Shown: positions 22,700 to 32,981 of the stretch, one piece after another | Layout of the letters: every line of letters begins with the position of its first letter | How positions within the stretch are numbered: position 1 is the stretch's first letter | Sequence record: MF374379.1 | Length of the DNA: 41,559 bases | Direction: 5' to 3' (one strand) | Origin: Escherichia phage DN1 | Position numbers and translations under genes: made by a program | The notes under the pieces: model-generated | What the model was told of the DNA's origin: nothing | What the model saw: only the letters and a program-made list of their open reading frames with translations | The model's database searches: none

Positions 22700-22880
22700 T
22701 GCTCTGTTACAGGTCACTAATACCATCTAAGTAGTTGATTCATAGTGACTGCATATGTTGTGTTTTACAGTATTATGTAGTCTGTTTTTTATGCAAAATC
22801 TAATTTAATATATTGATATTTATATCATTTTACGTTTCTCGTTCAGCTTTTTTATACTAATTTGAGCGAAACGGGAAGGT
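22700..22880. other. attR: attR-type hybrid attachment site: lambda P arm, core GCTTTTTTATACTAA (22846..22860), bacterial B' arm
   Basis: P arm CTGTTACAGGTCACTAATACCATCTAAGTAGTTGATTCATAGTGACTGCATATG...TCGTTCA, then the 15-bp core, then TTTGAGCGAAACGGGAAGG, which resembles the attB right arm and not attP (GTTGGCATTATAAAAAAGC). Confidence 0.85.
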
Positions 22881-22950
22881 AAAAAGACAAAAAGTTGTTT
22901 TTAATACCTTTAAGTGATACCAGATGGCATTGCGCCATCTGGCAGAGTGA

Positions 22951-23427
22951 TTAACTAAACATCGCAGTAATCGAGGCGCTTGCCAGAGAGTGGAAATGAA
23001 CGTTAAACCCGACCATCGCGCCGCTGGCACCTTCATCGACATCAATACGTTCTATATCCAGCGCGTGAACGGTAAAAATGTAGCGATGAGTTTCGCCTTT
23101 CGGCGGTGCTGCGCCATCGTACCCGGTTTTACCAAAGTCGGTACGCGTCTGCAAAACGCCGTCTGGCATTGCTACCAGACCAGAGCCAAACCCTTGCGGT
23201 AATACGCGGGTATCAGCGGGTAAGTTAACAACTACCCAGTGCCACCAGCCGGAGCCGGTTGGCGCATCCGGGTCGTAGCAGGTGACAACAAAACTTTTCG
23301 TTCCCGCAGGAACATCATCCCACGCCAGATGCGGTGAAATATTATCGCCATCGTAACCCATGCCGTTAAAGACATGACGATGCGGCAATTTATCGCCATC
23401 GCGCAGATCGTTACTGATGAGTTTCAT
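22951..23427 (-). CDS. ybhB: PEBP-family protein YbhB (E. coli chromosomal)
   Basis: 158-aa ORF MKLISNDLRDGDKLPHRHVFNGMGYDGDNISPHLAWDDVPAGTKSF; sits next to attB in E. coli K-12. Confidence 0.85.
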   Translation of the reverse strand: MKLISNDLRDGDKLPHRHVFNGMGYDGDNISPHLAWDDVPAGTKSFVVTCYDPDAPTGSGWWHWVVVNLPADTRVLPQGFGSGLVAMPDGVLQTRTDFGKTGYDGAAPPKGETHRYIFTVHALDIERIDVDEGASGAMVGFNVHFHSLASASITAMFS

Positions 23428-23485
23428 GAACCCTCCTTTCTTGTTTGCAGAAAGTGTAGCCAGAAACCCTCACGCGGACTTCTCG

Positions 23486-24775
23486 TTATTGGCAAAAAAA
23501 TGTTTCATCCTGTACCGCGCGGTTAACCGCTGCGGTCAGACGCTGCAACTGTTGCGGGAGAATAATATAGGGCGGCATCAGGTAAATCAGTTTGCCAAAA
23601 GGCCGGATCCAGACACCCTGTTCGACAAAGAATTTTTGCAGCGCCGCCATATTCACCGGACGAGTGGTTTCGACTACGCCGATTGCCCCCAGCACGCGCA
23701 CATCGGCAACCATTTCGGCATCACGGGCGGGGGCAAGTTGCTCGCGCAGCTGTACTTCAATAGCCGCCACCTGTTGCTGCCAGTCGCCAGATTCGAGAAT
23801 CGCCAGGCTGGCGTTTGCTGCCGCGCAGGCCAGCGGATTGCCCATAAAAGTTGGCCCATGCATAAAGCAGCCGGCTTCGCCGTTACTGATGGTTTCTGCA
23901 ACCTCGCGCGTGGTAAGTGTGGCGGAAAGGGTCATTGTGCCGCCGGTTAAGGCTTTACCGAGGCACAAAATGTCCGGCGCGATTTCTGCATATTCACAGG
24001 CAAACAGTTTGCCGGTACGACCAAATCCGGTGGCGATCTCGTCGGCAATCAGCAAGATACCTTCGCGATCGCACATTTTGCGGATTCGTTTTAACCATTC
24101 CGGATGGTACATGCGCATCCCGCCTGCGCCCTGGACAATCGGCTCAATGATCACCGCCGCGATTTCATGACGATGCGCCGCCATCAGGCGGGCAAAGCCC
24201 ACCATATCGCGCTCATCCCATTCGCCATCCATGCGGCTTTGCGGGGCGGGAGCAAACAGGTTTTCTGGCAGGTAGCCTTTCCACAGACTGTGCATTGAGT
24301 TATCCGGATCGCACACCGACATCGCGCCAAAGGTATCGCCATGATAACCATTGCGGAAGGTCAGAAAACGCTGGCGCGCTTCGCCTTTGGCTTGCCAGTA
24401 CTGCAACGCCATTTTCATCGCCACTTCCACCGCTACGGAACCGGAGTCCGCGAGAAAAACGCACTCCAGCGGTTGCGGCGTCATCGCCACCAGTTTGCGG
24501 CACAGCTCAATGGCTGGCGCATGGGTGATACCGCCAAACATCACATGCGACATGGCATCAATTTGCGACTTCATCGCCGCATTAAGCTGCGGGTGATTGT
24601 AGCCGTGGATCGCCGCCCACCAGGACGACATACCGTCAACCAGGCGTCTGCCGTCAGACAAAATCAGCTCGCAACCTTCGGCGCTCACCACCGGATAAAC
24701 CGGCAGAGGGGAGGTCATGGATGTGTATGGGTGCCAGATATGGCGTTGGTCAAAGGCAAGATCGTCCGTTGTCAT
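23486..24775 (-). CDS. bioA: Adenosylmethionine-8-amino-7-oxononanoate aminotransferase BioA
   Basis: Start taken at [23 protein letters not shown] (429 aa); ORF track extends 37 codons further upstream across the operator. PLP aminotransferase class III. Confidence 0.9.
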
Positions 24776-24782
24776 AATCGAC

Positions 24783-24816
24783 TTGTAAACCAAATTGAAA
24801 AGATTTAGGTTTACAA
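24783..24816. promoter_or_regulatory. bioO: bio operator (BirA site) with divergent bioA and bioBFCD promoters
   Basis: Palindrome TTGTAAACCAAATTGAAAAGATTTAGGTTTACAA between the divergent bioA and bioB starts. Confidence 0.8.
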
Positions 24817-24861
24817 GTCTACACCGAATTAACAACAAAAAACACGTTTTGGAGAAGCCCC

Positions 24862-31095: not shown

Positions 31096-31205
31096 GAAAA
31101 CAGCCTGATGCGCTACGCTTATCAGGCCTACATTTTCTCCGCAATATATTGAATTTGCGCGGTTTGTAGGCCGGATAAGGCGTTCACGCCGCATCCGGCA
31201 TAAAC
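31096..31205. repeat. REP (repetitive extragenic palindromic) elements downstream of uvrB
   Basis: GCCTGATGCGCTACGCTTATCAGGCCTAC and GCCGGATAAGGCGTTCACGCCGCATCCGGC are typical E. coli REP palindromes. Confidence 0.75.
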
Positions 31206-31256
31206 AACGCGCACTTTGTCTTCAATAGGAAGCCGGAATTTTCCTTCGGATTTCCG

Positions 31257-32165
31257 TTAACCTAAAGCCTGTAACGCCTTTTCCAGCGCGTTATGTAACA
31301 ACTGGCGGTCATGACGATACGGAATATCGCTGGCCTCCAGTACCTCCTGGATCACAATCCGCTCTTTCACCGCCGAGACATCCACTTTTGGCCCGACGAT
31401 GACCGCATCAATGACCTTTTTACCAACATACTGCTCCATAATTGCCAGCTTGCTTTCCAGCTTCAAATTAGCCGCAGGTAAACTCAACTCACGCCCCAGA
31501 TTGCCGATATAAACCATCGGCGCTGGCGTGCGGCGTAATGCCTGGGCGATTTCCTTCAGCAGCAGAATTGGCATCAGGCTGGTATAAAAACTGCCAGGCC
31601 CAATAATGATGAGATCCGCTTCATTGATAGCGTGAACCGCCTCACGCGTTGCGGGTACATTAGGCGTTAACAATAACTCTTGAATCGGCGTAGTTAACTG
31701 GTCGATATTGACCTCGCCGTAAACTTCATGCCCCTGATCGTCAATCGCCATCAGATCAACAGGATGCTCTGACATTGGAATCAAATGCGTATCCACTTTC
31801 AGCAGATTACGAATTAAATTGATGGCTTCCAGAGGCCGCACGCTAAGGTGATCCAGCGCCTTTAACATCAAGTTTCCGAGATTATGACCGGAAAGTTCGC
31901 CATTGCCACCAAAACGGTATTCAAACATCGCGGAGGCGACGCTCGGTTCCGTTATCAGCTGGTTGAGGCAGTTGCGCATATCGCCCCAGGCAATGCCGCC
32001 TTCTGAACGGCGAATACGCCCCGTCGAGCCACCATTATCGGTGGTGGTGACGATACCCGTTATACGAGAACCCAAAGACGAAAGTGATGAGAGAACGCGT
32101 CCCAGTCCATGCCCTCCGCCGAGAGCAACGACACGATCAAGATCAGCCAGCGTACGATTGCGCAT
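31257..32165 (-). CDS. ybhK: YbhK (YvcK/CofD-family protein)
   Basis: Start taken at [28 protein letters not shown] (302 aa); ORF track extends 20 codons upstream. Confidence 0.85.
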
Positions 32166-32424
32166 ATAGTTTCCTGGAGTCAGATTATCCGCGCTACAGT
32201 AGCGCAAATTGCGGGGAAACAGCAATTAACCTGCCAATATTGAGGATACAAACTATTTTCTTCTACCTCTAAAGGACGATGCACGCTATGCCTCCCTGAT
32301 GATGTATATCAAAGTAAAACCGCCATTTTCCCTTATTCTGTAGCGAAATAGCACGATCATGACGCTATATACATGATTACATAGCGAAAGTGTGGATGGT
32401 AAAAATCTCATTTACACGCTAGTA

Positions 32425-32555
32425 TCGGCATAACCACTAAACACTCTAGCCTCTGCACCTGGGTCAACTGATACGGTGCTTTGGCCGTGACAATGCTCGT
32501 AAAGATTGCCACCAGGGCGAAGGAAGAAATGACTTCGCCTCCCGTATCTGGAAAG
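32425..32555 (+). ncRNA. Molybdenum cofactor (Moco) riboswitch in the moaA leader
   Basis: Structured 5' leader just before the moaA start, with segments CCTCTGCACCTGGG, GGCCGTGACAA, GCCACCAGGGCGAAGGAAG and CCTCCCG; boundaries approximate. Confidence 0.55.
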
Positions 32556-32561
32556 GTGTAC

Positions 32562-32895
32562 ATGGCTTCACAACTGACTGATGCATTTGCGCGTAAGTTT
32601 TACTACTTGCGCCTGTCGATTACCGATGTGTGTAACTTTCGTTGCACCTACTGCCTGCCGGATGGGTACAAGCCGAGCGGCGTCACCAATAAAGGCTTTC
32701 TAACCGTCGATGAAATTCGCCGGGTTACGCGCGCCTTCGCCAGTCTGGGCACCGAAAAAGTGCGCCTGACAGGCGGTGAGCCGTCTTTACGCCGCGACTT
32801 TACCGATATCATCGCCGCTGTGCGAGAAAATGACGCTATCCGCCAGATTGCGGTCACCACCAATGGTTACCGTCTGGAACGCGATGTGGCTTTGG
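32562..32895 (+). pseudogene. moaA: 5' fragment of moaA (about 110 codons), truncated at the substitution junction
   Basis: [41 protein letters not shown] (radical SAM CxxxCxxC); MoaA-like sequence ends after ...[12 protein letters not shown] and the frame runs into unrelated sequence. Confidence 0.8.
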
Positions 32896-32981
32896 CGCAT
32901 GACGCGTCGAGGTGCTTATCTTCTCGATCGCTGTCTTGTAGCTGCAATTCGCGCCATCCCCAAAACCACTCAAGTTCTGGT

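Follow-up and report, generated by a model that had tools for sequence, protein, structure and literature searches.

The window, by which we mean the whole stretch of 41,559 bp that was analysed, opens with the lambda left cohesive end, and its last base directly precedes the next cos. Phage DNA lies at both ends of the window and host DNA carrying bio genes and uvrB lies between. The features of the phage DNA, up to and including the att core, are as follows.

1-21231, plus strand: lambda left arm; 100% identical to DE3 (EU078592) from 20081 on and 99.98% to lambda 1-21231
21157-22095, minus strand: ea59 ORF at the right end of the b region, truncated and extended
21226-21231: EcoRI site at the engineered deletion joint; the BLAST pieces abut at GAATTC
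21232-22845, plus strand: right end of the lambda b region and attP P arm; equals lambda 26104-27742 apart from one mismatch
22846-22860: att core GCTTTTTTATACTAA, common to phage and host, in an attR-type (P-O-B') site
32891-33184, minus strand: retained phage 21 pL region; the N coding sequence is wholly missing
33095-33067, minus strand: promoter-like site in the phage 21 pL region
33019-33010, minus strand: nutL boxA in the same region
33000-32981, minus strand: nutL boxB in the same region
33185-34516: imm21; 100% identical to DE3 11706-13037
33185-33835, minus strand: imm21 repressor (tblastn with cI of phage 21, 4e-148)
33916-34101, plus strand: imm21 cro
34217-34516, plus strand: imm21 cII
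34549-36146, plus strand: O and P replication genes, with ori (identity to DE3)
36355-36364: nin5 deletion joint; lambda 40502-43297 is missing, with a 10-bp microhomology, CACGAACCTG
36943-41559, plus strand: Q, S, R, Rz, bor and the right cos end (identity to DE3)
38243-38566, plus strand: S, wild type

The left arm begins at the cos left end GGGCGGCGACCT and carries Nu1, A, W, B, C, D, E, FI, FII, Z, U, V, G, T, H, M, L, K, I, J, lom, orf-401 and a truncated orf-314. Both arms are 100% identical to the DE3 record EU078592 (20081-42925 and 11407-20080), and the phage DNA of the window, 31.5 kb in total, does not differ from the DE3 prophage of BL21(DE3). The hallmarks of the D69 backbone are present, namely the EcoRI 1-2 deletion, in which 4,878 bp of the b region are gone and lambda 21226 is joined to 26104 (both lambda EcoRI sites), imm21, nin5, and removed BamHI sites, with the site at 5505 destroyed (GGATAC). 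The HindIII site at 44141 has also been killed. Catalogue genotypes of DE3 list the Sam7 allele, which is ruled out here by the wild-type S gene. The parent was an engineered D69/DE3-type prophage, and the lacI-T7 RNA polymerase cassette has been lost; we infer descent from DE3 from the 100% identity of all retained DNA and from the flanking E. coli B chromosome.

Host segment and its lineage

The genes of the host segment are given with the annotation carried over from the BL21(DE3) record, to which this DNA is 100% identical; bioO, the LexA box and the REP units were read from the sequence, and Chi sites were located by sequence search.

22861-32890, plus strand: host substitution, 10,030 bp of E. 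coli B-lineage chromosome; 0 mismatches to BL21(DE3) and REL606
22951-23427, minus strand: ybhB
23486-24775, minus strand: bioA
24783-24816: bioO operator palindrome TTGTAAACCAAATTGAAAAGATTTAGGTTTACAA with the divergent bio promoters, in the bioA-bioB spacer
24862-25902, plus strand: bioB
25899-27053, plus strand: bioF
25997-26004, plus strand: Chi GCTGGTGG in bioF
27040-27795, plus strand: bioC
27788-28465, plus strand: bioD
28952-28967, plus strand: LexA box of uvrB, CTGTTTTTTTATCCAG
29044-31065, plus strand: uvrB, complete
30591, plus strand: Chi GCTGGTGG in uvrB
about 31103-31200: two REP units, inverted
31257-32165, minus strand: ybhK
32430-32574, plus strand: Moco riboswitch (Rfam RF01055, 103.6 bits, E = 7e-25)
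32562-32890, plus strand: moaA', the first 329 nt of moaA
32861-32871, plus strand: 11-mer CAATGGTTACC, also present in the deleted part of the parent (DE3 11379-11389, the first codons of N)
32886-32890: novel joint, GTGGC, a 5-bp microhomology between moaA and the imm21-region DNA that separates N from pL

The original prediction had named ybhB, bioA, bioO, bioBFCD, the LexA box, uvrB, REP elements, ybhK, a Moco leader and a moaA fragment, and each is borne out by identity, sequence or Rfam. An Rfam match to ES036/CssrF (31124-31165, minus strand) overlaps the two REP units. The moaA' reading frame continues into phage DNA as far as a stop at 32993, adding 34 residues to MoaA 1-109; an exact look-up of this fusion ORF, in 143-aa and 170-aa versions, returned no entry in a public gene catalogue.

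Collinearity and near-identity with K-12 had been expected, and the gene order is indeed that of K-12, with the segment aligning to MG1655 without gaps at 99.44% identity (56 mismatches in 10,045 bp). The same 10,045 bp are also gap-free and collinear with BL21(DE3) and REL606, but here there are no mismatches at all: the host segment is identical in BL21(DE3), BL21 and REL606. Chance cannot account for 10 kb that match at 100% identity, and this allele pattern rules out K-12 as the source of the host DNA. The expected resemblance to K-12 therefore stands, whereas K-12 origin does not. Even the T at 22861, which adjoins the att core, is present in REL606 and not in K-12 or ATCC 8739.

These differences bear on the idea that an imm21 nin5 vector acquired, by a cross, one of the classical lambda bio substitutions of K-12 (such as bio1, bio10 or bio256, of the kind used as stuffers in Charon-type vectors). 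Old lambda vectors often combine bio substitutions with nin5 and EcoRI-site deletions, but none of the MG1655 differences, that at B' arm base 22861 included, is a difference from B strains. The substitution also extends to moaA, deletes N and fits the BL21(DE3) chromosome with 0 mismatches. Such a cross is hardly credible, being already refuted by the allele pattern.

Boundaries of the substitution and missing genes

To the left of the att core lies the P arm and to its right the bacterial B' arm, the attR-type layout that had been predicted from a lambda P arm and core with a bacterial B' arm. The left boundary falls exactly on the att core, as is required of any prophage end. Host DNA thus starts with the core at 22846, or with the first unique base at 22861, and ends at 32890; the predicted span of 22861..32895 had the correct start and a right end correct to within 5 bp.

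Host and phage DNA meet on the right in a single joint at which 5 bp are common to both parents, a degree of overlap with a probability of ~0.005 for a random joint. Because this joint lies 16 bp upstream of the N start, pL and nutL are retained. The 11-bp block that moaA has in common with the first N codons lies upstream of GTGGC by 14 nt on the host side and by 17 nt on the phage side. GTGGC occurs 11 times in the part of the prophage that could be deleted, and only one of these copies has the block. A crossover at the 11-bp block is ruled out, as the 14 nt that separate it from GTGGC in the window are those of moaA. The block probably stabilised a misalignment, which would have been resolved via template switching or microhomology annealing. 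Microhomology joints are a known signature of lambda bio phage formation (PMC11372144).

Both boundaries also argue against an in-vitro clone, in which a lambda replacement vector would have received a bio-uvrB restriction fragment by ligation. Arms of this kind do belong to a cloning vector. However, the segment is bounded by the att core and by GTGGC within GATGTGGCTTTGG, neither of which is recognisable as a common restriction site. Cloning in D69 uses a BamHI site in int, whereas the only BamHI site in the window, at 23605, is inside bioA, and no linker or restriction scars are seen at the boundaries. The sequence of both boundaries rules out a cloning joint, leaving this explanation with a negligible probability.

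The joint itself was found in none of the public collections searched. A 30-mer spanning it has 0 matches in IMG/VR, JGI metagenomes and GTDB genomes, and no record spans it among 5,426 complete E. coli genomes, 50,697 phage records and PLSDB. The only large match among sequenced phages with bio-uvrB, ON470605, was rejected as a P22-like prophage cut-out, with int at one end and a host flank at the other, that carries no substitution.

As had been claimed, int, xis, exo, bet, gam, kil and cIII are missing: tblastn searches (E <= 10) with their products gave only noise in the window, as did searches with T7 RNA polymerase and LacI, whereas cI of phage 21, the positive control, was found at 4e-148. 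Ea10, Ral, N of lambda and N of phage 21 likewise gave only noise in the window at this threshold; the deletion thus also takes ea10, ral and the whole of N, which the earlier sequence-only reading had overlooked. Sensitive blastn found no match in the window to DE3 16-11406. The lacI-lacUV5-T7 gene 1 cassette, which resides in int, is absent from the window and belongs to this deleted segment.

Probable origin by illegitimate excision

The window corresponds exactly to positions 759807-801365 of the BL21(DE3) chromosome (NC_012971.2), circularly permuted and cut open at cos, with 0 mismatches over 41,559 bp. When permuted at 32891 it becomes one uninterrupted interval of the lysogen chromosome. 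GTGGC is found just before this interval and again at its end, so the circle is closed by a 5-bp direct repeat. The sequence itself shows the structure of this DNA, its gene content and the parentage of every base.

We therefore consider that the window very probably spans, from cos to cos, a specialised transducing phage genome of the lambda pbio type. Its source would be illegitimate recombination in E. coli of the B lineage, most probably a strain of the BL21(DE3) family, that was lysogenic for a D69/DE3-type prophage. In such an event, a 41.56-kb chromosomal interval would loop out and close at the GTGGC repeat; the interval starts between N and pL in the imm21 region, takes in O, P, Q, S, R, cos, A-J and attR, and stops within moaA. 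The product has gained ~10.0 kb of host DNA, in which bioA, bioBFCD and uvrB are intact and retain their own controls. From the phage it keeps Q, the imm21 immunity region and every gene for head, tail, lysis and replication. It has lost ~11.4 kb of prophage, comprising int interrupted by lacI-lacUV5-T7 gene 1, followed by xis, exo, bet, gam, kil, cIII, ea10, ral and N. The original proposal, that an integrated lambda-type prophage was excised aberrantly, is supported by the exact return of the window to the lysogen chromosome. The parent was indeed lambda-type, but it was an engineered D69/DE3-type vector prophage rather than wild lambda.

The same event could have started in a B-lineage lysogen of D69 itself or of some other construct derived from D69. 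DE3 is defined by its int::lacI-T7 gene 1 segment, which is wholly inside the deleted part, so the window bears no proof of the cassette, and within it DE3 is indistinguishable from D69 or a D69 derivative in a B-lineage host. However, the window equals the BL21(DE3) chromosome base for base over 41.56 kb, and among strains that carry this prophage, B strains lysogenic for DE3 are by far the most common. We consider a parent other than DE3 unlikely.

An assembly or in-silico artefact would require a chimeric moaA-imm21 join among reads from a BL21(DE3) culture, with the contig then rotated to cos. The joint has had no independent sighting in any collection searched, and chimeric reads could also produce a 5-bp overlap. 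Against this, the left boundary is a natural attR, the deletion takes only dispensable genes and ends 16 bp past N with pL, nutL and the immunity region intact, and a genome of 85.7% of lambda size fits packaging limits. A viable genome is rarely expected from a random chimera, and bipartite crossover homology of 11 + 5 bp is improbable for one. Such an artefact is accordingly very unlikely, and illegitimate excision from a DE3-type lysogen is the reading that we follow below.

DE3 is treated in the literature as unable to excise (PMC10250240). Illegitimate excision, however, needs no Int. A literature search found no report of a DE3-derived transducing phage.

Predicted growth and related phages

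The genome has Nu1 to J, O, P, Q, wild-type S, R, Rz and cos, each identical to its DE3 counterpart, and should be packageable at 41,559 bp, which lies within the limits of ~78-105% of 48.5 kb. Lytic growth is predicted to proceed without N because nin5 lets transcription from pR reach Q, and nin5 is sufficient for N-independent growth. The original prediction of a plaque-forming phage thus depends on nin5, which is present, since N is deleted. Loss of exo, bet and gam together with two plus-strand Chi sites constitutes a Spi-/Fec- genotype. The phage is predicted to be Spi-/Fec-, dependent on host RecA, and aided by these Chi sites; the plus strand is the orientation taken to be active for RecBCD entering at the lambda right end, and lambda itself contains no Chi. 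A phage without N, red and gam would grow poorly. The bio and uvrB genes are intact and identical to those of a bio+ uvrB+ strain, and complementation of bio and uvrB mutants is predicted.

It had also been proposed that this phage cannot integrate by itself. This holds for the Int-dependent, site-specific route, which is impossible, but 10 kb of homology should allow RecA-dependent integration. Lysogeny would be expected only if a helper phage supplied Int or if the genome recombined with the homologous bio-uvrB region of the host.

Textbooks have covered specialised transduction by lambda bio phages since the 1960s, and no principle is at stake. DE3 lysogens are deemed locked-in and int-defective; it is possible, though doubtful, that they spontaneously shed a viable, N-independent imm21 phage without T7 RNA polymerase and with 10 kb of B-strain DNA. 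The joint, with its 3'-terminal 5-bp match and an 11-bp anchor 14-17 nt upstream, would then document excision by template switching or bipartite microhomology, and not simple end joining. If so, the shed phage could infect non-lysogenic BL21 or K-12 cultures. In practical terms, the genome itself shows an Int-independent exit of a prophage from the most widely used protein-expression strain. The phage that results lacks the T7 polymerase cassette and is potentially infectious, which bears on phage contamination and strain stability in laboratories and fermenters. Mechanistically, the genome offers a fully resolved illegitimate excision joint with both parents known to the base and an unusual bipartite homology. 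For annotation, the 10-kb bio-uvrB segment is host cargo from faulty excision, and not a phage-encoded auxiliary metabolic module.

Unlike the DE3 prophage (EU078592, NC_012971.2), the genome lacks the left 11.4 kb (lacI, lacUV5-T7 gene 1, int remnants, xis, red, gam, kil, cIII and N), which 10 kb of host DNA replace. It is a fresh case of the classical lambda pbio (Spi-) kind. As in plaque-forming lambda pbio phages (bio1, bio10, bio11, bio252 and others, with the Spi- phages of the Ikeda illegitimate-recombination assay among them), host DNA begins at the att core (P-O-B') and extends to the right across the bio operon, int, xis, red, gam and further phage genes that would follow att on its right are gone, the novel joint is at a short microhomology, and Chi in the bio DNA offsets the loss of red and gam (PMC11372144). 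However, the host DNA here is from E. coli B and theirs from K-12, and the parent of our phage was an engineered imm21 nin5 vector prophage. Its substitution is also long (10.0 kb, to moaA) and removes N too, and its microhomology is bipartite (11 bp + 5 bp).

Lambda bio-uvrB phages of the 1970s-80s, which were used to map and clone uvrB, likewise carried the bio operon and an intact, LexA-controlled uvrB on a lambda genome. They were K-12 derived and usually had b2-type deletions or were defective, whereas room here was provided by the EcoRI 1-2 deletion and nin5. N-independent variants of the Court and Sato type reportedly have a bio substitution through N and grow only since nin removes the terminators between P and Q. 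The bio substitution described here also spans N, with nin5-dependent growth predicted, but unlike in those variants the region is that of imm21, the N gene concerned is that of phage 21, and the joint lies just upstream of its start.

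Parentage of the phage DNA

The window begins at the lambda left cohesive end (GGGCGGCGACCT...), and its last base directly precedes the next cos. It consists of three blocks, each 100% identical to a known sequence. Positions 1-22845 correspond to 20081-42925 of the DE3 phage record (EU078592), positions 22846-32890 to BL21(DE3) chromosomal DNA on the right of the prophage, and positions 32886-41559 to DE3 11407-20080. At the left boundary of the host DNA, G+C content rises from a b-region value of 0.38-0.39 to 0.55-0.58 across the bio genes. When rotated to start at 32891, the window matches the BL21(DE3) chromosome (NC_012971.2) at 759807-801365 with no mismatches over 41,559 bp. 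The sequence GTGGC lies directly before this chromosomal interval and also forms its final five bases. The permuted exact match therefore indicates that the window is a single unbroken interval from a BL21(DE3)-type chromosome, circularized over a 5-bp direct repeat and linearized at cos. Aberrant excision from an integrated prophage, as proposed in the original prediction, is thus supported: circular permutation and such a repeat are expected of an excision product.

The phage arms bear the marks of an engineered vector. A 4,878-bp deletion runs exactly between the lambda (J02459) EcoRI sites at 21226 and 26104 (window joint 21226-21231), the BamHI site at 5505 (window 5505-5510) is destroyed and now reads GGATAC, and two substitutions have destroyed the HindIII site at lambda 44141 (window 37198-37200). 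The sole remaining BamHI site in the window is at 23605, within bioA, and the sole HindIII site is at 22601. Also present are the imm21 substitution and the nin5 deletion, which removes lambda 40502-43297. The nin5 joint (window 36355-36364) coincides with a 10-bp microhomology, CACGAACCTG, found at lambda ~40492-40501 and 43298-43307. The cos-Nu1 leader lacks one base relative to lambda, the G at lambda 138; this deletion, at window 138, is shared with the DE3 record.

These arm markers agree with the DE3 record and with the backbone of D69, the source of DE3. The T7 polymerase cassette, which is DE3's defining feature, is missing from the window. The BL21(DE3) chromosome is matched perfectly, which suggests that the parent was DE3 rather than D69 or a sibling construct. 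DE3 is regarded as unable to excise, int being inactivated (PMC10250240). Illegitimate excision does not need Int.

Host DNA and its lineage

A bio-uvrB host substitution entered through an attR-type site had been predicted, and the identity to BL21(DE3) and the arrangement of the site confirm it. The left boundary has a lambda P arm and a 15-bp core (22846-22860), followed by a bacterial B' arm.

Features of the host block (genes by identity to the annotated BL21(DE3) record; other elements from the sequence unless a model is named)
22951-23427, minus strand: ybhB
23486-24775, minus strand: bioA
bioA-bioB spacer: bioO palindrome
24862-28465: bioB, bioF, bioC and bioD
28952: uvrB LexA box, CTGTTTTTTTATCCAG
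29044-31065: uvrB
uvrB-ybhK interval: two inverted REP units
31257-32165, minus strand: ybhK
32430-32574: Moco riboswitch (RF01055, 103.6 bits)
right end of the block: moaA', the first 329 nt of moaA

The expected K-12 gene order holds, as the block aligns collinearly and without gaps to K-12 MG1655, but a K-12 origin does not: 56 of the 10,045 positions differ from MG1655, with B-strain alleles throughout. It matches BL21, BL21(DE3), REL606 and other B strains at every position. Base 22861, where the B' arm starts directly after the att core, is T in the window and in BL21(DE3), REL606 and CP029371. K-12 and ATCC 8739 (our L009, position 1482) have C there, although the latter is otherwise identical to the window across the 10 kb. 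The B alleles, including this T, therefore place the lysogen in the B lineage and not in K-12.

REL606, which is without DE3, has a lambda-like P arm to the left of the core (~2910-2996 of our extract L005), with 70 bp identical to the window. At att-lambda, E. coli B therefore already contains the remnant of a prophage, and the site that DE3 entered must have been this hybrid one.

Within the REP elements, 31124-31165 (minus strand) matches the Rfam sRNA family ES036 (CssrF) with 43.4 bits against a gathering score of 37.6; this is probably a REP-derived family hit and not a distinct gene. At the right end, MoaA residues 1-109 are fused to 34 residues encoded by the phage 21 N-pL spacer, in an ORF at 32562-32993 (plus strand). 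An intact Moco riboswitch lies upstream of this ORF. Most of the radical-SAM enzyme is missing, and the product is presumably non-functional.

Structure of the phage-host joint

The breakpoint on the phage side is DE3 11407, and the joint, GTGGC at window 32886-32890, lies 16 bp upstream of the start codon of the imm21-region N gene (DE3 11092-11391, minus strand). A 5-bp microhomology is expected in 0.5% of random phage-host pairings. Both parents also share an 11-mer, CAATGGTTACC, which together with GTGGC gives a bipartite homology. On the moaA side the 11-mer occupies window 32861-32871, 14 nt upstream of GTGGC, and on the phage side it occupies DE3 11379-11389, in the first codons of N and 17 nt upstream of GTGGC (11407-11411). 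The deletable prophage segment contains 11 GTGGC sites, of which only the one that was used has the 11-mer as a neighbour; the others share 4-6 nt. A shared block of at least 9 nt within 40-nt flanks is found in 0.5% of random pairs.

Crossover at the 11-mer itself is ruled out, since the 14 nt between it and GTGGC follow moaA in the window, which places the exchange at GTGGC. A misaligned 3' end might have been primed by the 5 bp and anchored by the 11 bp, through template switching or internal-loop annealing. From this single event, the joint is suggestive of such an anchor and primer. Formation of lambda bio phages by microhomology-dependent, RecA-independent joining has been documented (PMC11372144).

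Gene content and predicted behaviour

The deletion runs from attL through N, and removes lacI, lacUV5-T7 gene 1, the int remnants, xis, exo, bet, gam, kil, cIII, ea10, ral and N. As anticipated, a search of the whole window, in which the positive control worked, found none of int, xis, exo, bet, gam, kil and cIII. Still present are the repressor gene, cro, cII, O, P, Q, S, R and Rz. The S holin gene (38243-38566) is wild type, as in the DE3 record; the Sam7 allele, although listed in widely quoted DE3 genotypes, is ruled out by the lack of an amber at codon 56.

Leftward control elements retained beside the joint
33095-33067, minus strand: pL-like promoter
33019-33010, minus strand: nutL boxA
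33000-32981, minus strand: nutL boxB

Leftward from 32891 to 31257 (minus strand), transcription from pL would cross moaA' and the riboswitch in antisense and then enter ybhK in its coding direction; bioA and ybhB lie beyond. This geometry resembles the classical "escape synthesis" of bio from pL. With N gone, such transcription should terminate early.

Structure, gene content and the parentage of each base come directly from the comparisons, whereas statements on function draw on established lambda biology. With 85.7% of the length of lambda, the genome would be packageable. The nin5 deletion removes terminators between P and Q, and with N deleted, late gene expression would rely on nin5. The absence of red and gam should make the phage Spi- and Fec-, and packageable concatemers would need host RecA/RecBCD. 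Two plus-strand Chi sites in the substitution, at 25997 (bioF) and 30591 (uvrB), would ease this dependence; lambda itself has none. The classical Spi- assay relies on Chi within bio DNA (PMC11372144). Both the bio operon and uvrB are complete and keep their own operators, so the phage should complement bio and uvrB mutants. Lysogenization should be lower from loss of cIII, and imm21 lysogens, including BL21(DE3), should be immune.

The prediction that the phage cannot integrate by itself holds for the site-specific route, which is impossible without a helper phage because int and xis are absent and the site is attR-type, but the 10 kb of homology would allow RecA-dependent insertion. The excision reading thus stands with four corrections: the B lineage, the D69/DE3 parent, the loss of N with its likely dependence on nin5, and this homologous route.

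All of the sequence-level defining features of lambda pbio (plaque-forming bio transducing) phages that we tested are present, and on these features the window would be a pbio-type specialized transducing phage. Unlike classical isolates, it carries E. coli B host DNA, derives from an engineered prophage, has a substitution that extends to moaA, and has lost N, so that growth probably depends on nin5. A 30-mer across the joint had no match in IMG/VR, JGI metagenomes or GTDB genomes, and no record spanning the joint was found among complete E. coli genomes, phage records and plasmids. The MoaA' fusion ORF was not found in the public gene catalogue, and literature searches turned up no account of a DE3-derived transducing phage. 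The window is a fresh example of a classical phenomenon, whose value lies in a practical point on DE3 lysogens and in a cleanly resolved joint.

The GenBank entry ON470605.1 ("phage vB_EcoP-720R6, partial genome") represents a cut-out P22-like prophage. Its ends (1-8000 and 44998-46068) have an integrase on one side and ybhB, bioA, bioBFCD and uvrB', 96.8% identical to the window, on the other; this bio-uvrB part is host flank mislabelled as phage sequence.
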